Source: a bacterium
Lineage (GTDB): Bacteria; Pseudomonadota; Alphaproteobacteria; Rhizobiales; JAKIUO01
Assembly: GCA_024228495.1 (NCBI GenBank)
Contig: JAAETJ010000241.1
Span: 4,627 to 68,626 of the forward strand
Direction: 5' to 3'
DNA length: 64,000 nucleotides
Below the pieces are notes generated by a model. That model was not told where the DNA came from. It searched no databases and saw nothing but the letters and a program-made list of their open reading frames with translations. This document shows, piece by piece, positions 5,670-63,941 of this stretch. The number at the start of each line of letters is the position of its first letter. Position 1 is the first letter of the stretch. The position numbers and the translations under genes are program-made.

Positions 5670-6290
5670 ATGGAACATAGCGCATTGAAAATGGCCGAGA
5701 TCAAAAATGTCTGTGTATATTGCGGCTCAGGTTCAGGGGTTAATCCCAACTTTGCCAGAGCCGCAAAAATATTGGGCAAAGACCTCGCCAATCGGAATAT
5801 AGGCCTGGTGTATGGCGGTGGCAGTCTTGGATTAATGGGCGAAGTTGCCCGCGCAACTCTTGAGGCCGGAGGTCAAGTGACAGGCATTATTCCCGAATTT
5901 CTATCAGAGAGGGAACATATGCTGGAAGAGGTGCAAGAGCTGATTGTCACCGACAGTATGCATGAGCGCAAACAATATATGTTTGCCAAATCAGATGCTT
6001 TCGTGGCGCTCCCCGGAGGTGCCGGCACTCTTGACGAGTTGATCGAGCAGGTGACGTGGTCACAGCTCAACCAGCACAACAAGCCAATCATCATCGCCAA
6101 TATCGATAATTACTGGCAGCCCTTATTGGAACTTTTGCATCATATGAGCGAAGAAACTTTTATCCGCCCCGGCCTTGAGGTCAGCTTCAAGGTGGTCAAA
6201 AACGCCAAAGACATCTTGCCCACCGCCATTGAAATGGCTTTAACCATGGAAATGCTGCCCGGAAACACCATTTTCCCTTCGGAATTCTAA
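5670..6290 (+). CDS. LOG family protein (TIGR00730, cytokinin riboside 5'-monophosphate phosphoribohydrolase-like)
   Basis: VCVYCGSGSG, GLVYGGGSLGLMG and PGGAGTLDEL are LOG/lysine-decarboxylase-like motifs. The start is ambiguous (5613, 5670 or 5691). Confidence 0.85.
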   Translation: MEHSALKMAEIKNVCVYCGSGSGVNPNFARAAKILGKDLANRNIGLVYGGGSLGLMGEVARATLEAGGQVTGIIPEFLSEREHMLEEVQELIVTDSMHERKQYMFAKSDAFVALPGGAGTLDELIEQVTWSQLNQHNKPIIIANIDNYWQPLLELLHHMSEETFIRPGLEVSFKVVKNAKDILPTAIEMALTMEMLPGNTIFPSEF

Positions 6291-6296
6291 TCGCCT

Positions 6297-6698
6297 TTAA
6301 AAACGTGGAATACGAAAACCCGAAACCATCATCATCACCCACCCAAGAACAAAGCTCATACCTCCTATGGGGATGAGGGGAATGAGCGGAGAACCGCCCA
6401 TGATGGCTTTCACGTAAAAGGAGCCCGAGAACAGCAGTATTCCGAAAAAGAAAAATACTGCAGACAGGCGTGCACTCCAGGAACCATGGGACTCCATCCC
6501 ATGATCAAACACCCAGATCAACCACGAACAAAACAGTATCGCAAACACATGGATCATGTGATAGCGCCAGGCTTTTTCAAAAAACACCGCCTTGTCGCCG
6601 GTGAGTGTGTCGGCCAGCATATGCGACCCCATGGCCCCCAGGAAAACACCAAGTGCGCCCAGTAAGCCAGCAACAATAATCCAGAAGCGAAATCCCAT
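6297..6698 (-). CDS. DUF423 (YgdD-like) small membrane protein
   Basis: 133 aa with four hydrophobic helices. The N-terminus FWIIVAGLLGALGVFLGAMGSHML is typical of DUF423. Confidence 0.7.
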   Translation of the reverse strand: MGFRFWIIVAGLLGALGVFLGAMGSHMLADTLTGDKAVFFEKAWRYHMIHVFAILFCSWLIWVFDHGMESHGSWSARLSAVFFFFGILLFSGSFYVKAIMGGSPLIPLIPIGGMSFVLGWVMMMVSGFRIPRF

Positions 6699-54784: not shown

Positions 54785-55549
54785 TTATTTCTTATCGGAT
54801 CCGCTCTCAAGTGCCTTGGCCCAGGGAGCCAGACGCCGCTTTTCGCGTGGATTATCGACCTGATTGCGGGTCGGACTGAAAAAGATCCCGGGTGCATGCA
54901 GCAGCTTGCTGTAGGGGAAAATGATCATCAATATGAGAACCAGTGTCAGATGAACCATCAAGGGCAGGCTGTCAGGCAGCGGCTGCCAGTCAAACATGTT
55001 CAAATAGGCAAGGCTCAAAAAGAAGTTTTTGACTGAAACGATATCGGTGCGATCAACATATTGCATCATGAACCCGCTGACACCGATCATGATCAGCAAC
55101 AACAGCATCAAATGATCAGAGGGCGATGAAATATAGCGCACACGATTGACAACGATCCGCCTTATGGCCAATCCCGCCAGACCAAAGACCATAGCAAAGC
55201 CAGCATATTTACCGATCGGTTGAATATAGGCGATACCCAGCCAAATGAAGTCAGGCACATGGCGCGGATCGACGAAATAGCGAATATGACGGATCAGCAC
55301 CAGCAAGAGGCCAGCATGAAACAGATAGCCAAATATCCAGATCCATTTATTGGACTTGAACAGGCTTTCAAACAGAGCTACTTCACAGAACATTCGCAAC
55401 CAGACCCCAGAAACCGTAGTCGGCGCAGGCGTGGTCGCGATATTAAGGGGGGCCGGTACTTTTGCATACTCAAAGATTCTATAAGCAATCCCGACAACCA
55501 GCAGGATTGTCGCGAAATAGAATGCAAGGGCATAAATCGTGGTGATCAC
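54785..55549 (-). CDS. dsrM: DsrM, NarI-like dihaem b membrane subunit
   Basis: 254 aa with 5-6 TM helices and conserved His residues (YLFHAGLLLVLIRHIRYF). GTG start with GGAGGA upstream. Confidence 0.85.
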   Translation of the reverse strand: MITTIYALAFYFATILLVVGIAYRIFEYAKVPAPLNIATTPAPTTVSGVWLRMFCEVALFESLFKSNKWIWIFGYLFHAGLLLVLIRHIRYFVDPRHVPDFIWLGIAYIQPIGKYAGFAMVFGLAGLAIRRIVVNRVRYISSPSDHLMLLLLIMIGVSGFMMQYVDRTDIVSVKNFFLSLAYLNMFDWQPLPDSLPLMVHLTLVLILMIIFPYSKLLHAPGIFFSPTRNQVDNPREKRRLAPWAKALESGSDKK

Positions 55550-55961: not shown

Positions 55962-56294
55962 CTAGATACAGCCAGTTGGTTTTGGCAGACCGCCAACTTT
56001 ACAAGCCTGTTTGGCAGGACCATAGGGAAACAACTCATAGAGATATTTGTTGCTACCTTTTTCAGGGCCAAACTTCTTCTTAAGCGCTTTAACAAGCACG
56101 CGAATAGCAGGAGCAATTTGATACTCTTCATAATATTCGCGCAAAAAGTTAATCACCTCCCAATGCTCATCAGTCATCTCGATGCCTTCATCCTTTGCAA
56201 GCAAACCTGCAAGTTCTGGAGTCCACTGATTGATGTCAGAAAGATAACCTTCTTCGTCATGTTCAATGCTTTCGCCACCAATTTCATAAGCCAT
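55962..56294 (-). CDS. dsrC: DsrC, sulfur-trafficking/sulfite reductase substrate protein
   Basis: 110 aa ending ...AKQACKVGGLPKPTGCI, with the two conserved C-terminal-arm cysteines. ATG 56294 has AGGAGA upstream. Confidence 0.95.
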   Translation of the reverse strand: MAYEIGGESIEHDEEGYLSDINQWTPELAGLLAKDEGIEMTDEHWEVINFLREYYEEYQIAPAIRVLVKALKKKFGPEKGSNKYLYELFPYGPAKQACKVGGLPKPTGCI

Positions 56295-56435
56295 TTTAAT
56301 TCTCCTGTTTTCTATCATTCCCGTCATTTTGCTTCTTAAATCAAGAAACAACCGAAAGCGGGAATTCTTTTTTACAAAAGCCTTTTCCGCTCAATTCCCA
56401 AGCCCAACCCATTGCCAGGTCAGATTTTCAAGGTA

Positions 56436-56741
56436 TTACAGCCATGCCTGTGTTGCTGTGTGCTTTTCGACCAGGTCGACAAAACCACCAAAATCAACAC
56501 TTTCAATGCCATCGATCATGGTCTGATTGGCGAGACCGCGCGCATCAACATCTGGACCAAGTACATAGAACTTGATATTGCCCATGCGCTTTTTGATAAA
56601 GTCGGCGACCGCAGTATTGTCGAGAGCGCCATAGACGCCATCTTCGATCAGCAAGATACCAGCGCCGTCCTCGCAAACCCGCAGGCAGCTTTCGAGCGTA
56701 TTACGCTCAAAAGGCGACTTGTTCACTGTATGTAGTAGCAT
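56436..56741 (-). CDS. dsrH: DsrH sulfurtransferase subunit
   Basis: MLLHTVNKSPFERNTLESCL...VDFGGFVDLVEKHTATQAWL closely follows the A. vinosum DsrH pattern as I recall it. Confidence 0.9.
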   Translation of the reverse strand: MLLHTVNKSPFERNTLESCLRVCEDGAGILLIEDGVYGALDNTAVADFIKKRMGNIKFYVLGPDVDARGLANQTMIDGIESVDFGGFVDLVEKHTATQAWL

Positions 56742-56753
56742 ATTCAGTCTCCT

Positions 56754-57146
56754 TTAGGCTGTCAGAATTACTTCTTGTTTCGACATCAGAGATTTAAGAT
56801 CATCAGAACTCAAAACTTCAACCGGCACAACCAAATCTTCGACGGTCAGACCACGTGCTTCCAGACTTTCTTTTTCGACATAGAGTTTTTCAACGTCATA
56901 GCCTTCAAGTGCCCGAAATGTTGGCGAAAAATTCTTCATGTTGACGCCTTTGGTCTCTTGCTCTTTCTTGAGCTGATAGACCCCATCATCCATAAAAACC
57001 ACATGCACATCTTGTTCAAAAGCGGCAGCGATCAAAACTTTCTCAAGCATTTCCAGAGCATAGACCGTCCCATAAGGGGCCTTGCGATTGACATACATGA
57101 AGCGTTTGACAACTTCTGGTCCGTCCTCATCCCATTCTTCTTCCAT
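56754..57146 (-). CDS. dsrF: DsrF sulfurtransferase subunit
   Basis: DsrE/F fold (FMYVNRKAPYGT...). ATG 57146 has AGGAGA 6 nt upstream. The ORF-track start is 57167. Confidence 0.9.
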   Translation of the reverse strand: MEEEWDEDGPEVVKRFMYVNRKAPYGTVYALEMLEKVLIAAAFEQDVHVVFMDDGVYQLKKEQETKGVNMKNFSPTFRALEGYDVEKLYVEKESLEARGLTVEDLVVPVEVLSSDDLKSLMSKQEVILTA

Positions 57147-57156
57147 CAAATATCTC

Positions 57157-57531
57157 CTAATCACCAAACGTTATCTGTCGGTCTGCAACGATACCGGATT
57201 CAATCAACTGCCCCAGACCCGAGATACGGAATCCAGGTGCCAGAATGTCATCCTTGATACCGCGACGTAGCGCAGCAGCAACACAGACAACGAGGTCCAC
57301 TTTGTGCTCCTCAGCAAGTGCTGACCAGAGTTTCACAAGGTCCCTGTCGTCAGCCTGTGGCTCGGACAGTTTATTGGCGTTATTCACACCATCATAATAA
57401 AAGAACACCCGATAAATCTCGTGCCCTTTTTCCAATGCAGCCTTCGTAAACAGATAGGCGCTATCAGATGCTTGGTGCTGAAACGGCCCTTCATTGACCA
57501 GAATACCAAATTTCAAAGCGTCATCCCCCAA
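57157..57531 (-). CDS. dsrE: DsrE sulfurtransferase subunit (active-site Cys)
   Basis: LKFGILVNEGPFQHQASDSAYLFTKAALEKGHEIYRVFFYYDGV...VVCVAAALRRG. Compared with A. vinosum DsrE from memory, the real start may be TTG 57516 (GGGGGA 7 nt upstream) rather than TTG 57531. Confidence 0.9.
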   Translation of the reverse strand: MGDDALKFGILVNEGPFQHQASDSAYLFTKAALEKGHEIYRVFFYYDGVNNANKLSEPQADDRDLVKLWSALAEEHKVDLVVCVAAALRRGIKDDILAPGFRISGLGQLIESGIVADRQITFGD

Positions 57532-57726: not shown

Positions 57727-57749
57727 CTAGTCGATAAGTTCTCGACTAG
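57727..57749 (-). other. perfect 8-bp hairpin spanning the dsrB stop codon
   Basis: CTAGTCGA (57727-34) pairs with TCGACTAG (57742-49), and the dsrB TAG lies within the right arm. Confidence 0.6.
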
Positions 57750-58828
57750 AAGCGGATATGCGCCGAGTGGTTCATTGAATTGCGAGCGCCGACCCAAGTA
57801 TCAATGTGATGCTTGGTAAAGGCGAACCCGGTTTTTTCAAAGAAGGCAGGCCAACCGATACGGTCAATCCACTCTCCAACACGCTCCCAATCACGCGCAT
57901 CAGCTTTGTAAATGGATAGAATTGTGCGAACAACCGCCTCAACTTCAGGCCAACGCGGTGGATTATTGGGAAGGTTAGCAACCACAAGTTTGTGAAACGT
58001 TGGTTTGGAGCGCGCATTTGAATGCTTGCCACCCACCCACACTGCAATCCGGGTTTCTTCTTTACCGTTGATCTGCATAGGCGGACAAGGCGCGAAACAC
58101 GCACCACAGCAAATGCATTTCTTTTCGTCAACTTCAAGCGATGGCTTGCCATTGACCATGGCTGGGCGAATAGCCGCAACCGGACAACGAGCCACAACAG
58201 ATGGGCGCTCACAAACCTTGCTGACGAGATCATGATTGATCCGTGGTGGTTTGGTATATTGCACATTGATGGCGATATCACCCTGGCCACCACAGTTAAT
58301 CTGACAACAAGATGTTGTCACCTTGACGCGGTTAGGCATCTCTTCAGAAATAAAGTCCTTATGGAAGATATCCATCAGACTTTTTGTGACGCCAGAAGCG
58401 TCTGTTCCTGGAATGTCGCAATGCAACCAACCCTGCGTATGGGAGACCATGGCAATCGAATTGCCGGTACCACCAACGGGATAGCCAGCTTCACCAAGTT
58501 TGGCGATCAGTGGATCAACCTTGCTTTGATCGGCGCACAAGAATTCAAGAGAGCTACGCGCGGTAAAACGCAGGAAGCCATCGCAAAACTCGTCAGCCAA
58601 ATCGCACAATTGATGGATCTGGAATGAATCCATCTGACGCGTTGTACCCGCCTTGACAGTCCAGATTTCATCGCCACTTTTTGCAACATGATGCAAAACA
58701 CCTGGGCGTGGCCGGTCGTGCCAGTCCCATTTTCCGTAATTGGCTTTCATAATCGGGTGCATATATGGCATGGGATCTGGAACACCGTGCTCATCGGGTA
58801 GCTTTGGCGGTGGTGGTCTATCATTCAT
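57746..58828 (-). CDS. dsrB: dissimilatory sulfite reductase beta subunit (oxidative type by context)
   Basis: 360 aa with sirohaem/Fe-S cysteine motifs (TSCCQINCGG, CERPSVVARCP, KKCICCGACFAPCP). Confidence 0.95.
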   Translation of the reverse strand: MNDRPPPPKLPDEHGVPDPMPYMHPIMKANYGKWDWHDRPRPGVLHHVAKSGDEIWTVKAGTTRQMDSFQIHQLCDLADEFCDGFLRFTARSSLEFLCADQSKVDPLIAKLGEAGYPVGGTGNSIAMVSHTQGWLHCDIPGTDASGVTKSLMDIFHKDFISEEMPNRVKVTTSCCQINCGGQGDIAINVQYTKPPRINHDLVSKVCERPSVVARCPVAAIRPAMVNGKPSLEVDEKKCICCGACFAPCPPMQINGKEETRIAVWVGGKHSNARSKPTFHKLVVANLPNNPPRWPEVEAVVRTILSIYKADARDWERVGEWIDRIGWPAFFEKTGFAFTKHHIDTWVGARNSMNHSAHIRF

Positions 58829-58931: not shown

Positions 58932-60188
58932 CTATTCAGCAGCTTCTGCCTCACCTTTTTTGACGAAATATTTAGCGGCCTCCTCATCGAAATCGGATGT
59001 ATCAACATAGCTCGATGTACGTGGATGCGCGATCATATTGGGGTTTGGATCGATGCTCAGAGCTTCCAGGAAGTCCGGCAGACCAACGCGGTCGATAGTT
59101 TCACCAACGCGTTCATGCTCAAGGGCATTGTCAGCAAAGAAGTCAATGCATTCACCGGCAAATTCAACCAATTCGTCATAATCTTCGTCGCTATCAAGCT
59201 TGATGAAAGGCTTGATCATGGTACCCATGAGATCGCCTATTTTCAGTGAGCGCTTGCCGCCCATGAGGATTGAAGCGCCTTTGTCATCGCCAGGAGATAG
59301 AGCCTTTGGCATGACGTTGAGGCAATGCATGCAACGAACACAGCTGCGATTGTCAATCTCGACGGTATCATTGTCATTCAGCGAGATGGCGTTGCTTGGG
59401 CAACGGGTCACAACACTGTCTATGAAATATTTGCGACCCGCTTCTTTTATGTAAGCAGTGACCTCTTCCTGGTTGATCTTGATATCATCACGCCAGGTAC
59501 CTATGACGGCGAAATCGGAGCGATGGATGGCATTGACGCAGTCATTACCACAACCAGAGAATTTGAATTTGAACTTGTAGGGAAGCGCAGGACGATGCAT
59601 TTCATCAAGATATTCATTGATGATCATGCGCATGGCTTTGGCCTCATCATAGCAGGACATTTCGCAACGGGCATGGCCAACACAGCTCATGCTCGTACGA
59701 AGAGCAGGGCCAGCACCACCAAGGTCAAAACCAAGAGCGTTGAGTTTGTCAAAAGCTGGCTGGGTCTGTTCGGTTGTACAACCCTGGAACATAATGTCAC
59801 CAGATTGTCCATGAAACGCAATCAAACCTGAACCATGCTCTTCCCAGATATCACTCATGGAGCGCAAAAGATCGGTAGTGTAATGCATGCCAGCTGGCGG
59901 CATGATGCGCAGAGTATGAAATTCTTTTGCTGCTGGATAGACATCAGCTACTTCGGAGAAACGAGGAATAATACCACCGCCATAACCAAACACCGAAACC
60001 GTGCCGCCCTTCCAGAAACCAAGGCGCTCTTGATAAGAATGCTCAAGCTGTCCCAAAATGTCATTGACCATTGGCGTATAAGATTTGCCACTGTCGCGCA
60101 GACGTTTCAGCGCCGTCACAAAACTAGGCCATGGACCTTTTTCCAGCTCATCAAGCATGTCGGTTGAGTGAATTTTCATATCTGACAT
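58932..60188 (-). CDS. dsrA: dissimilatory sulfite reductase alpha subunit (oxidative type by context)
   Basis: From ATG 60188 (GGAGGG 8 nt upstream) the product starts MSDMKIHSTDMLDELEKGPWPSFVTALKRL, aligning with DsrA N-termini. Motifs include SMSCVGHARCEMSC, FSGCGNDC and a ferredoxin insert CVRCMHC. 418 aa. The full ORF extends to 60485. Confidence 0.9.
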   Translation of the reverse strand: MSDMKIHSTDMLDELEKGPWPSFVTALKRLRDSGKSYTPMVNDILGQLEHSYQERLGFWKGGTVSVFGYGGGIIPRFSEVADVYPAAKEFHTLRIMPPAGMHYTTDLLRSMSDIWEEHGSGLIAFHGQSGDIMFQGCTTEQTQPAFDKLNALGFDLGGAGPALRTSMSCVGHARCEMSCYDEAKAMRMIINEYLDEMHRPALPYKFKFKFSGCGNDCVNAIHRSDFAVIGTWRDDIKINQEEVTAYIKEAGRKYFIDSVVTRCPSNAISLNDNDTVEIDNRSCVRCMHCLNVMPKALSPGDDKGASILMGGKRSLKIGDLMGTMIKPFIKLDSDEDYDELVEFAGECIDFFADNALEHERVGETIDRVGLPDFLEALSIDPNPNMIAHPRTSSYVDTSDFDEEAAKYFVKKGEAEAAE

Positions 60189-60485
60189 ATTGTCGTTCCC
60201 TCCTTCGGATATCTCTTTTTTTGCTTCTTCAATTTGCTGTGAGGCATTTCCTATCGCGTTTCCCTGAACATCAAATTCAAGAATCGCATCGCCTGCTTCA
60301 AGCTGTATTTCTATCTCATCGAGTCGCTCCAGAGCGGTGAAGTAACGCGCTTGTTCTTCATCTTTTTTTAGTTCTTCAACAGCCTTATTACGCAAATCTT
60401 GAATAGACCTTAGTAAACTTTCCTTATTCAATTCGCTCCTCCTCCGGCGTATCGACTCAATCCCGCAAACCATCGCCATCAACAA
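60189..60485 (-). other. 99-codon stop-free in-frame region upstream of the dsrA start (possible N-terminal extension or translated leader)
   Basis: Same frame as dsrA with no stop codon. It encodes a Glu/Lys/Leu-rich helical sequence. An internal GGAGGAGGAG (60436-60445) precedes an in-frame TTG (60431). Confidence 0.35.
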
Positions 60486-60941
60486 TGAGCGCGCACTATA
60501 TAGGTTGTTTTTGGCCTGACATGGCGCTTAATTCCCATCTCACTGGCTCGCGAAGTTCAACCTCGATATCAGATCGTATGAACCCACATCAAAACAAATC
60601 CTGCACCACATTTTTATCACTTGCAGTCCATTGAATATGCGGTTTATATCATTGAAGTAGAATATTTAAAAGCGCTAATATGAATTTGCATGTAAACTCG
60701 CTGTCAAATAGTCTCAAACAACCAAGCATATGAAGAAAAATTGTAAAAAATGCGTTTATTTACAAAAGGTTATAAAAACAAGAATACAGCTTAAAACAAC
60801 CATTCTTGCGCTGCTATGTGGAAGGATTATCTCCCTTTCAAGCGATACGATATAGTTTGAATTGGCAAAAATGAGGCAATATGTCCCGAATTCTATTTTC
60901 GAGAAAACAGACCGTAACAGGGTATTGGACACAAGTATAAA

Positions 60942-61865
60942 ATGAAACCTGGAACAAAAAAGCAAGCAGCCATCTATCGGCTTGATCGGAGCGAGGTTTA
61001 TAAACATTGGCGCGACGACAAGCTGTCGCATGCCTCGATTGATGCTAGCGAGATACTCGTAGAGATAGAGGATATCAGTGCGCCGAACCCGACTGAAAGC
61101 GCCGAGATCCTCAAGCATTGCTGCCATAATAATATGGCGCTGTACCGCTGCAATAGTGCATGCGACAAAGAACAGGTGGTACGAAACAAGGCCCATGCCT
61201 TTGCCCATCATTTTGGCTTGCACCGGGTCGAACAGCACCGCTCCATGACGCCGGACGGGCTGGTATCAATTGAGATCATCGACAATAGCACGGAGGGCCG
61301 TGCGGGCTTTATCCCCTACACCGACAAACCAATCAGCTGGCACACCGATGGCTACTATAATCCAACGACCTCGCGCATTAAGGCGATGATCCTGCATTGC
61401 GTGCGCTCAGCGCCAGAGGGCGGCATCAATGAGCTATTTGATCCCGAACTCGCTTATATCGCGCTGCGCGACGAAAATCCCGACTATATCAACGCTTTGT
61501 CCCATCGCCGCACTCTGACGATACCAGCTTTCGCGGAAAAGGATGGGACTACACGAGCTCAATCTGTTGGTCCCGTCTTTACCTGGGATCGCTATACCGG
61601 CAATCTCCACATGCGCTTCACCGATCGCAAACGCTATATCGAATGGTGCAAAGATGACATAACAGCCGAAGCTGTCGGTTTTTTGCGCCACGTGCTTGCC
61701 AATGACGATCATGTCCTTAAATATAAAATGAACGCTGGCGAGGGCATTATCTGTAACAATGTCCTGCATAACCGCTCCGCGTTTGAGGACAATAACAAGC
61801 CCGCAGCAGGCCGTCTGCTCATGCGCGCACGCTATCTCGACCGTATTGAGGGTACCTGCGACTGA
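60942..61865 (+). CDS. TauD/TfdA-family Fe(II)/2-oxoglutarate-dependent dioxygenase
   Basis: 307 aa. HxD in ISWHTDGYY, a distal His in VLHNRSAF and an Arg-rich C-terminus. It is divergent from dsrA. Confidence 0.7.
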   Translation: MKPGTKKQAAIYRLDRSEVYKHWRDDKLSHASIDASEILVEIEDISAPNPTESAEILKHCCHNNMALYRCNSACDKEQVVRNKAHAFAHHFGLHRVEQHRSMTPDGLVSIEIIDNSTEGRAGFIPYTDKPISWHTDGYYNPTTSRIKAMILHCVRSAPEGGINELFDPELAYIALRDENPDYINALSHRRTLTIPAFAEKDGTTRAQSVGPVFTWDRYTGNLHMRFTDRKRYIEWCKDDITAEAVGFLRHVLANDDHVLKYKMNAGEGIICNNVLHNRSAFEDNNKPAAGRLLMRARYLDRIEGTCD

Positions 61866-61969
61866 GCGGCGCTTAACAATAGACGCCAACCTTGTTAAAA
61901 TCCCCACAATAGATACGAAAAAAAGGCAACAGCCCCCCTTGGAAGCCTTGCCATAGAAGGGACAAAAAC

Positions 61970-62200
61970 ATGCATTTAAGTGATCTGATTATTTCAAACC
62001 CGGAAGTAACAAATTTTGACGATCTAAAACAACTTATTGTTGCTGCAGCTCAATCTGGTGAACGCTTTTTGCATCTCGATATCAAGCCGGATTATCGCGA
62101 CACACCAAGCAATTGGGAACTCAAGCTGGAAGCTGCGTTCTACTGGGGCGACCAAATCCTCCCGCCAGCCGAAAACGCCGCCAAAAAAGAAAACAAATAG
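61970..62200 (+). CDS. hypothetical small protein (76 aa)
   Basis: GAAGGGA lies 7 nt upstream of the ATG. The product is acidic with a Lys-rich tail and no Cys. No family recognised. Confidence 0.5.
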   Translation: MHLSDLIISNPEVTNFDDLKQLIVAAAQSGERFLHLDIKPDYRDTPSNWELKLEAAFYWGDQILPPAENAAKKENK

Positions 62201-62213
62201 AAGGCTGAAGCAA

Positions 62214-62483
62214 ATGAGCGATGAACGAGCAGGACGACGCATGGGGGGAGCCGAGCTTGAAGGCGTTGGAGAACACAAAGACGAGTTCGCCAGTTTTCAC
62301 GCGCCTTATCGCAATGCCGTTATTACCTTGATCGACAAGCCATCTGATGACGTGCCACTTATGGAAATGCGCATCCGCGAGGGGCGACGTATCACCGTCC
62401 TTGAACTTGATAGTGATACAGCTGAAAATCTCGCCAAGACGCTGCAGTGCTGGGCCGACAAAGTACAAAATAAAGGGGCTTGA
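62214..62483 (+). CDS. hypothetical small protein (89 aa), directly abutting cysG
   Basis: ATG 62214 has GAAGG upstream, and the TGA stop (62481-83) abuts the cysG ATG at 62484. The longer 148-aa track ORF (62037) overlaps the previous gene and is less likely. Confidence 0.55.
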   Translation: MSDERAGRRMGGAELEGVGEHKDEFASFHAPYRNAVITLIDKPSDDVPLMEMRIREGRRITVLELDSDTAENLAKTLQCWADKVQNKGA

Positions 62484-63941
62484 ATGGAATATCTGCCCAT
62501 AAATATTGACCTTAGAGGTCGCAAGGTCATTGTCACAGGTGGCATCACCGGCTCGGCTCGTAAGGTTGACCTGGCACTGCGTGCGGGGGCCAAGGTCACG
62601 GTCCATGCGCAAAAGCTTGGGCCTGACTTTCATGAACTGGTAAAAAACCGTGCCCTCACCCACGTCAATACACGCCTCTGTAGCGACGAGCTTACCGATG
62701 TGGCGCTGATCTTTGCTGCCTGCGAAGAAGTGGACGAAGACAAGCGCATTTTCGATATGGCAAGAGCGGCTGGCGTACTGGTCAATGTGCCTGACAAATC
62801 CGAACTTTGCGATTTCATCATGCCCGCCATTCTGGATCGCAGCCCACTGGTCATCTCTGTTTCCTCGGGCGGTGCCTCCCCTATACTGGCGCGGGTTATC
62901 AAGGCTCGGCTCGAGACCCTGTTCCCCGCTGCTTACGGTCAGCTGGCCAGTTTTGTCAGTCGTTTTCGCGACGATGTCATGGACAATATCAAATCGGGAG
63001 CCGGGCGATTACGCTTTTGGGAAAAAGCCATTGATGGTCCCGTGGCCGATATGGCGCTTTCTGGCGACCTGCGCGGCGCCGAAGAGCAAATGCGTGCCGA
63101 ACTGAAAGCTTCAATTGAAACAGATGGCAAACCTCTGATGGGGGAAGTTTATGTAGTGGGCGCTGGCCCCGGCGATCCCGATCTTTTGACCTTCAAGGCT
63201 CTGCGCCTCATCCAGCGCGCCGATGTGGTGCTTTACGATCGTCTGATCGGTAAGGGATTGCTCAATCTTGTGCGCCGCGATGCCGAGCGGATTTATGTCG
63301 GCAAGCTGCCCAAAGACCATATCATGCACCAGGAAGAAATTACCAAACGCCTTGTGGAGTTCGCCAAACAGGGTAAGCGGGTGTTGCGCCTCAAGGGCGG
63401 TGATCCTTTTATCTTTGGCCGCGGCGGCGAAGAAATCGAAATGCTCGCCGAACATGGGGTACCCTTTCAAGTTGTGCCCGGTGTAACCGCAGCGGCTGGA
63501 TGCTCGTCATATGCGGGCATTCCCCTCACCCACCGCGATCATGCCCAATGCTGCATCTTCGTGACCGGCCATGGCAAGGATGGCAAGGTGGACCTCGACT
63601 GGGAAGCGCTCATCAAGCCCCACCAGACCGTCGCCATTTATATGGGCCTCGCGCAACTGGCGATTTTGACCAGTGAATTTATTGGCAATGGCGCCGACAG
63701 GGATTTACCAGTCGCTGTCATCGACAATGGCACAAGGCACAATCAACGCGTCATCATTGGCACGCTGTCGACCATTGCTGACAAGGTCAAGGATTCTGGC
63801 ATTGAAGGCCCAGCCGTGACCATAGTCGGTACCGTCGTCACTCTGCATGACAAGCTCAAATGGTTCATGCCGGAAAAACAAAGCGCCCGAGCTGCGCAAT
63901 CATCGAGAGATGCCATCCCCGCTCATATAAGTACGAAATAA
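62484..63941 (+). CDS. cysG: sirohaem synthase (precorrin-2 dehydrogenase/ferrochelatase + uroporphyrinogen-III C-methyltransferase)
   Basis: 485 aa. An N-terminal Rossmann/CysG-N part is followed by a C-terminal SUMT part with [12 protein letters not shown] and [15 protein letters not shown]. Confidence 0.9.

Follow-up and report, generated by a model that had tools for sequence, protein, structure and literature searches.

Background

The enzyme DsrAB stands at the core of dissimilatory sulfur metabolism and also serves as a standard marker gene; for its oxidative form, we know of no small partner comparable to the winged-helix protein DsrD. DsrD is a small allosteric activator of reductive DsrAB that is absent from sulfur oxidisers (PMC8794893), and a statement in the same paper, which cites Laue et al. 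2001, has it fused to DsrB in Bilophila wadsworthia. The helical hairpin described here resembles DsrD in being a small protein beside dsrAB that is encoded separately in some cases and fused to a catalytic subunit in others. However, DsrD is encoded downstream of dsrB and is fused to the C-terminus of DsrB, whereas the hairpin is encoded upstream of dsrA, at the N-terminus of DsrA, in an oxidative cluster. The two have no sequence similarity; neither the 81-aa peptide of our locus nor five family members gave a Pfam match to DsrD at E<=1. By analogy with the DsrD-DsrB fusion, a fusion of the hairpin to DsrA would be evidence of physical association.

Genes in which in-frame tandem starts give long and short isoforms are represented by IF2 alpha/beta, the long and short forms of CheA, and ClpB. 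Our locus is similarly organized, with one open reading frame (ORF), two in-frame pairs of Shine-Dalgarno element and start codon, and a long form with an extra N-terminal module; dual start use has been demonstrated for those genes, whereas here it is suggested by the conservation of both sites. Among small helical-hairpin proteins, XseB, uL29, and Rop act by protein-protein contact or bundle formation. The present hairpin has a size of about 50-80 aa and two antiparallel helices in common with them, but the resemblance is structural only; the hairpin belongs to none of these families, and its scores lie far below threshold (XseB, 16.2 bits where NCBIfam requires 94 and 14.7 where it requires 107; uL29, E 0.3).

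The dsr locus and the open frame upstream of dsrA

The window, that is, the whole stretch of 64,000 nucleotides analyzed, carries the following genes around dsrA:

58932 to 60188, minus strand: canonical dsrA, 418 codons plus stop, start codon ATG 60188-60186, in an oxidative-type context
57746 to 58828, minus strand: dsrB, downstream of dsrA
57157 to 57531 and 56754 to 57167, minus strand: two DsrE-family genes, dsrE and dsrF
56436 to 56741, minus strand: dsrH
55962 to 56351, minus strand: dsrC
54785 to 55549, minus strand: DsrM-like gene
60942 to 63941, plus strand: divergent operon of a TauD-family dioxygenase (60942 to 61865), a 76-aa ORF, DUF6967, and sirohaem synthase CysG

The presence of dsrB, dsrE/dsrF, dsrH, dsrC, and a DsrM-like gene downstream of dsrA identifies an oxidative-type (reverse) dsr cluster. 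The gene directly after dsrB is dsrE, and no dsrD occupies that place in the cluster. The dsrA profile TIGR02064 scored 552.7 bits against an NCBIfam cutoff of 392.85, its positions 1-399 of 402 aligning with residues 111-509 of the 517-aa ORF listed for this frame; the alignment begins at the DELEKGPW motif, in agreement with the sequence-only reading, which had taken ATG 60188 as the canonical DsrA start. The Pfam domains NIR_SIR_ferr (PF03460; 29.9 bits) and NIR_SIR (PF01077; 111.9 bits) were also recognized in dsrA.

The same reading had pointed to 99 further codons open in the dsrA frame, and the rechecked coordinates bear this out. From the first start-type codon, TTG 60485, to ATG 60188 there are 99 stop-free codons, and from the stop codon TAA 60530-60528 there are 113; the ORF list accordingly gives 58932 to 60485 as a single ORF of 517 aa starting at TTG 60485, and the frame measures 531 codons from stop to stop. 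Over the same 297 nt, the remaining five frames contain 2-11 stops each. In simulations with a first-order Markov model of the local base composition (43% GC, A-rich), the probability of 99 stop-free codons was 0.0017-0.0023 and that of 81 codons was 0.004. The earlier estimate of about 1% was therefore somewhat high; at roughly 0.002, the open frame is rarer than supposed, and the observation is slightly stronger.

The elements within and in front of this frame are as follows:

58932 to 60431, minus strand: long ORF comprising hairpin, linker, and DsrA, 499 codons plus stop, start codon TTG 60431, frame continuous
60436 to 60445, minus strand: Shine-Dalgarno element GGAGGAGGAG, followed by CGAA and then TTG 60431-60429, a 4-nt gap, in frame with dsrA
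60279 to 60431, minus strand: helical-hairpin domain, 51 codons (about 50 aa), consensus MDxDSFLxAIRxLRxKAVEELxKDEEQARYxxALEKLDEIE
60189 to 60278, minus strand: variable, low-confidence linker, 30 codons, acidic and rich in Gly/Ala/Ser
60198 to 60203, minus strand: internal Shine-Dalgarno element GGAGGG, 9 nt 5' of ATG 60188, coding for Gly-Gly of ...SEGGNDN-M

Both ribosome-binding signals proposed from the letters are thus in place. The upstream run lies at 60436-60445 with the 4-nt gap to TTG 60431, and GGAGGG precedes ATG 60188 at a distance of 9 nt, not the 8 nt first given.

Coding constraint and start position

Comparison with the nearest relative suggested that the peptide, and not merely the DNA, has been maintained. 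Among 5.8 billion clustered proteins, the 81-aa peptide had one match, P0001 (ENA contig L081), which is 78% identical, has the same start position, and runs in frame into DsrA. In hairpin codons 1-45, dN/dS between the window and L081 was 0.09-0.10, close to the 0.106 of the first 57 dsrA codons, with 9-10 synonymous and 4-5 non-synonymous changes (9 of 13 synonymous; binomial P 2.4e-4) and with 5, 1, and 9 differences at the first, second, and third codon positions. The linker (codons 46-81) was almost unconstrained in the same comparison, with an omega of 0.58 and 8, 7, and 9 differences at the three positions. Since the two loci have diverged to a dS of 0.44, the low dN/dS of the domain indicates that selection acted after the split between the window and L081. 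In five other orthologous pairs for which dS could be estimated, free-free or fused-fused, the domain gave a dN/dS of 0.08-0.17, and the P values of the synonymous excess ranged from 2e-4 to 6e-6 across pairs. Judged from these substitution patterns, the hairpin region is protein-coding, and its peptide is under purifying selection.

The position of the N-terminus is indicated by several features of the homologues. All of them begin with M-D/N/E-x-D/E-S at the position of TTG 60431, and a Shine-Dalgarno element lies 5' of each start. For domains that are single-copy or fused (copy 2), this element is GGAGG-like and lies 5-9 nt 5' of the start; the starts of the stand-alone copies (copy 1) are preceded by weaker GGGAG/GGAAGGG elements. 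The upstream start codon is TTG in the window and in L081, and ATG in other family members; TTG is a weak codon. In L081 the TTG lies behind GGAGGGGG and is directly preceded by an in-frame TAG, so that the N-terminus of the L081 protein cannot be further upstream. A family hidden Markov model matched the window frame with 98.7 bits (E 1e-28), a score that is not independent because the window sequence is one of the five in the model, and the match covered residues 34-83 of the stop-to-stop frame, which places the beginning of the domain at TTG 60431. A phmmer search with the window peptide alone recovered P0001-P0003 at E values of 9e-30 to 2e-7.

Architecture and searches for known relatives

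The 499-aa protein is predicted to consist of a two-helix hairpin, a disordered linker, and the DsrA body. In the AF2 model, based on an alignment of 126 sequences, helices span residues 3-23 and 28-53 at a pLDDT of 72-88, linker residues 51-81 are below 50, and a normal DsrA body follows; residues 82-499 are an ordinary full-length DsrA with the expected mixed alpha/beta fold. The hairpin modeled alone gave the same two helices with a mean pLDDT of 73, which is only moderate, the alignment being shallow. Over 45 residues, the hairpin has a net charge of -4 to +1 (net acidic), and its hydrophobic residues are spaced as in amphipathic helices. In an alignment of the 14 sequences that define the family, L7, L13, L21, R29, A33, and L37 are invariant, and R14, A17, D24, Y30, D38, and E41 are also invariant or nearly so; the window hairpin carries all of L7, L13, R14, L21, R29, Y30, A33, L37, D38, and E41.

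Searches of Pfam, NCBIfam, and PDB sequences gave no significant match to the hairpin, Foldseek found none in the PDB, and no recognizable HTH or RHH was seen in it. Solved DsrA chains (2V4J, 3MM5, 2XSJ, 3OR1, and 3OR2) align from query residue 87-89, which corresponds to their chain residue 2-3, and hence none of them has a counterpart of the first 81 residues. Our literature search, judged by titles and abstracts, found no paper describing an N-terminal extension of DsrA or the hairpin. Sequence comparison places the hairpin in a small-protein family that has not been described before.

Members and distribution of the hairpin family

An exhaustive HMMER search of 1.84 billion representatives recovered P0002 (64 aa) and P0003 (62 aa); P0007 (57 aa) and P0008 (63 aa) came from a profile search. 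All four are stand-alone genes, and on contigs that include the flanking genes they have a divergent TauD-like gene on one side and dsrA on the other. Three longer proteins (P0004-P0006; 1356-2462 aa) were set aside as compositional, coiled-coil-like matches, which were short or fragmented, with none reported for P0004. When the whole long ORF was used as the query, four more long DsrAs with the N-terminal domain were obtained, namely, P0012 (533 aa), P0013 (522 aa), P0016 (494 aa), and P0036 (519 aa), and the 90%-identity cluster of P0012 contained the further members P0129-P0131 (486, 489, and 492 aa), differing chiefly in linker length. The domain was present in just 4 of the 120 best database DsrAs.

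The family is usually fused to DsrA, with a stand-alone gene of 57-64 aa sometimes present in addition or instead, as judged from these loci. Eleven distinct sequences are in-frame fusions (the window, L081/P0001, L084/85, L087/88, P0012/P0132, P0129, P0130, P0131, P0013, P0016, and P0036), which, together with the dN/dS values and the start common to all homologues, argues for the proposed extended DsrA that begins at TTG 60431 and has an 81-aa extension. In L084/85 and L087/88, the free copy is followed downstream by another that continues in frame into DsrA, the dsrA of L084 being called as 516 aa; L094 (P0036) is likewise a two-copy locus, and L086 has a second copy on a contig that ends before dsrA. 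With L086 counted as a probable case, an extra free copy is found upstream of the fused one in four loci. Single fused copies are present in L089, L090, and L093. One lineage (L082/83) has a free copy only, which ends in TAG 29 nt before dsrA and in another frame. In one further lineage, L001, the copy is decayed.

The L001 locus belongs to a metagenome-assembled genome (MAG; 'Alphaproteobacteria bacterium Dive100_bin10.29'), and the hairpin DNA at its positions 759-990 is disrupted by indels (-1, -2, and -9 nt) as well as in-frame stops. Its dsrA is intact, encoding a DsrA about 90% identical to that of the window, and both the dsrA Shine-Dalgarno element and a 43-nt upstream core, described below, are kept; from these letters, L001 holds a freshly decayed copy of the hairpin ORF. 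The sequence-only reading had named stops and frameshifts in close relatives as a sign of untranslated sequence. They occur in L001, and a stop with a change of frame occurs in L082, whereas L081 and the other fused forms are open; the other line of evidence that it had proposed, peptide conservation and dN/dS, went in favor of translation, with the peptide conserved in relatives and the first 45 codons at 0.09. In L081 itself, a 1-nt deletion in a G run of dsrA (about positions 6414-6420, TTTCT-GAAAGG) splits the gene call into products of 139 aa and 119 aa. The contig name indicates 4x coverage, and the deletion is thus probably an assembly error rather than the mark of a pseudogene.

In species-representative genomes, the domain was absent in any frame from 79 other dsrA loci (L002-L080). 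It was also absent upstream of the close DsrAs of P0010/L092 and L002, and from the 215 nt visible upstream of the close DsrA of P0009/L091. All relatives come from metagenomic contigs or MAGs. Within this sampling, the family is restricted to the neighbourhood of oxidative-type dsrA in one narrow alphaproteobacterial clade, and the module is evidently dispensable in some lineages. A rough, approximate neighbor-joining tree placed the window in a subclade holding all states and sister to a mostly fused clade; the fused state therefore looks ancestral, with splitting, decay, and loss occurring later. A metagenome DNA scan with a 30-mer from the conserved core had 0 matches because more distant relatives differ from it at 1-2 positions, and a metagenome scan with peptide patterns from the family alignment gave 600 pattern matches with 0 confirmed because the patterns were too degenerate.

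The layout is shared by the window, L081, L084-L086, L089, L090, L093, and L094, in which the domain lies directly 5' of dsrA in the same orientation, with the 43-nt core upstream of it and the TauD-like gene diverging on the other strand; the contigs of L082 and L087 are too short to identify the neighbouring gene in this comparison. Over 42 positions, the window copy matches the free copies of the two-copy loci at 20-24 residues and their fused copies at 20-22, which favors neither as its ortholog. The free paralogues in two-copy loci (L084 3480-3668, L086 1657-1830, L087 516-707, and L094 1521-1697) always have Cys22 and Gly28, with the sequences ELCRDEELGRYY and ALCEDEELGRYF, and the free-only copy of L082 is without Cys22. 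Fused copies have Gly/Lys/Ala22 and Ala/Ser28. The single conserved cysteine of the free paralogue might have a sulfur-relay or redox role.

Fusion, linkers, and the putative internal start

Linker length varies widely, and the reading frame does not. From hairpin codon 45 to the DsrA methionine there are 36 codons in the window and L081, 18, 27, 50, 54, 58, and 69 codons in the other loci measured, and about 22-28 in P0129-P0131, so that extensions before the DsrA methionine amount to 63-114 codons across fused forms. Linkers of 22 to 69 aa occur inside one 90%-identity cluster, and L084 and L087 differ by a 69-nt indel in the linker. No linker sequence is conserved, and all fused linkers are in frame and stop-free. 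A spacer would be expected to be in frame and stop-free with a probability of 1/3 x 0.07-0.56 per lineage, an estimate in which the lineages are not independent. P0012, P0013, P0016, and P0036 came to light because they had already been called as long proteins, and this introduces an ascertainment bias; L084 and L087, recovered via the stand-alone copy, are free of that bias, and both proved to be fused.

The canonical methionine and a purine-rich GGAGG/GGGAAGG element in front of it are kept in every fused relative. This internal Shine-Dalgarno element is read as Gly/Glu/Lys codons within otherwise unconserved linkers, giving the protein motifs EGGND-N-M, EGGKD-x-M, EEGKDA-M, NEGKGP-M, EKGKEG-M, KQGGKN-M, and NKGGKT-M at the internal start. 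Continued internal initiation would most simply account for the retention of element and methionine in all fused forms, which makes long and short DsrA isoforms likely; both long and short alpha subunits are probably made. The presence of stand-alone copies beside the same enzyme as the fused copies is, at the level of gene order, a Rosetta-stone pattern.

Upstream core and putative promoters

Two promoter-like elements lie upstream of TTG 60431:

60640 to 60682, minus strand: 43-nt AT-rich core CATATTAGCGCTTTTAAATATTCTACTTCAATGATATAAACCG, 208 nt upstream of TTG 60431, containing TTTAAA, a 16-nt spacer, and TGATATAAA
60495 to 60522, minus strand: second sigma-70-like site, ATGTCA-16-TATAGT, inside the upstream open frame

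The core occurs once in the window. Its consensus is CATATTAGCGCTTTAAAATATTCCRCTTCAATGATATAAACGC, in which TTTAAA is followed by a 16-17 nt spacer and then TGATATAAA, and it includes the small palindromes AGCGCT, TTTAAA, and AATATT. Among the domain-bearing loci, 12 reach far enough upstream, those of 65-70% GC genomes included, and in all of them the core is nearly invariant and lies 208-293 nt 5' of the first domain start. Positions of the core elsewhere are L081 5750, L001 481, L082 400, L084 3157, L086 1333, L087 180, L089 5734, L090 3713, L093 2747, and L094 1215. Across genomes of 43% to 70% GC, the core is conserved more than dsrA itself, and it was absent from the 79 other dsrA loci (L002-L080). 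It resembles an extended -10 promoter combined with an operator. L001 shares the second site, L081 has a weaker version of it, and more distant relatives have none; as a possible secondary promoter, it would place a transcription start near 60488, upstream of TTG 60431. Given the core and this second site, the putative transcription start lies upstream of TTG 60431. A sigma-54 reading of the sequence after the core was dismissed on visual inspection, the spacing being wrong for GG-N10-GC. At E<=1, Rfam gave no match in 60100-61000, and the RNA fold of the 216-nt leader had a z of +0.69, with no unusual structure.

Proposed function and alternative explanations

We consider it likely that 60189-60431 (minus strand) is translated as a hairpin-linker extension of DsrA, with a second, short isoform and a docking role as the corollaries that we infer. 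Ribosomes would start at TTG 60431 behind the strong Shine-Dalgarno element and produce the 499-aa DsrA, the first ~50 residues of which would fold as a two-helix hairpin tethered by ~30 flexible residues to the DsrA body. The same mRNA may also yield the ordinary 418-aa DsrA from ATG 60188, resulting in a mixture of long and short alpha subunits. The hairpin could then serve as a protein-protein module through self-pairing across alpha2-beta2, pairing with a free copy, or docking onto DsrAB or a Dsr partner, the leash keeping it at a high local concentration. By analogy, its function is most likely that of a tethered accessory or docking module of rDsrAB. A more specific proposal, which we put forward only tentatively and hold to be rather doubtful, is that the hairpin is an accessory subunit of reverse DsrAB, a counterpart of DsrD in both tethered and free form, that the ratio of long to short isoforms tunes assembly or the recruitment of DsrC/DsrL/DsrEFH, and that the Cys-bearing free paralogue pairs with the tethered one.

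The retention of the hairpin could have other reasons. It might be a real small protein for which fusion is only a mode of delivery: cleavage within the linker would release it from the long chain, or fused and free versions would be equivalent, and the active species would be a free protein of ~6-8 kDa. Stand-alone versions exist and are under equal purifying selection, a separate gene suffices in L082, and the linkers are of low complexity and low predicted confidence, hence probably protease-accessible. However, no conserved cleavage motif is visible in the linkers, and two-copy loci keep free and fused paralogues that differ systematically at residues 22 and 28; the contrast between Cys22/Gly28 in free copies and Gly/Lys/Ala22 with Ala/Ser28 in fused copies suggests that the two forms are not interchangeable, and we regard this alternative as unlikely. 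Even less probable is a decaying relic, in which an ancestral small gene lost its stop, came to lie in frame by accident, and is now translated little or not at all from TTG 60431. The decay in L001, the several close DsrAs without the domain, the TTG start, and the almost neutral linker (omega 0.58) would agree with this, but a domain dN/dS of 0.09 over a dS of 0.44 between the window and L081, a strong Shine-Dalgarno element kept in both, and a fused state that is in the majority across the family in spite of variable in-frame linkers are difficult to reconcile with it.

Two regulatory explanations fare worse. The sequence-only reading had raised the option of a translated leader, in which ribosomes loaded at the upstream Shine-Dalgarno element raise dsrA expression and the peptide is irrelevant. 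The very strength of the element at 60436-60445 and the absence of a stop before dsrA speak for such coupling, but conservation at the amino-acid level from 43% GC to 70% GC genomes indicates that the peptide itself matters; moreover, stand-alone paralogues lie ~130-290 nt upstream of the next start (that of the fused copy), which makes coupling impossible there, and the leader has neither an unusual fold nor an Rfam match. In its pure form, this option is not supported and is very improbable. The least probable of all is that the hairpin is an autoregulator that binds the 43-nt core and controls dsr transcription. Core and domain do co-occur wherever both are visible, and both are absent from the 79 other dsrA loci, but shared ancestry of the whole intergenic region explains this co-occurrence, and L001 keeps the core with the domain decayed. 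A net acidic domain (-4 to +1) of two long helices without a recognizable HTH/RHH would be a poor candidate for DNA binding, and a DNA-binding domain tethered to a 200-kDa enzyme would be odd.

With a hairpin-linker extension of DsrA as the preferred reading, a conserved module repeatedly fused to DsrA would be direct genomic evidence for a new physical partner of this enzyme. Because gene callers place the start of these dsrA genes at one site or the other, the extension is invisible in most protein databases, and DsrA lengths in the clade are inconsistent (418 versus 486-533 aa). The significance of the module is bounded by its narrow taxonomic range and its evident dispensability.

Other observations in the dsr neighbourhood

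The divergent operon (TauD, an unannotated 67-79-aa ORF, DUF6967, and CysG) is syntenic with hairpin-dsrA in L081, L084, L085, L089, L090, and L093; in L086 and L094, the TauD gene alone is visible before the contig end. To our knowledge, a TauD-like enzyme and DUF6967 beside dsr have no described role in sulfur oxidation. L093, a fused-type relative, has an extra 80-aa gene without a Pfam match between dsrB and dsrE (5791-6033), and the corresponding place in the window is a 214-nt gap with no minus-strand ORF of at least 40 aa. The mechanical dsrC ORF of the window (55962-56351, minus strand) comprises 129 aa from a TTG; the DsrC profile aligns from its residue 24, the DsrC of relatives has 110 aa, and the true start is probably an internal codon ~19 codons further downstream.
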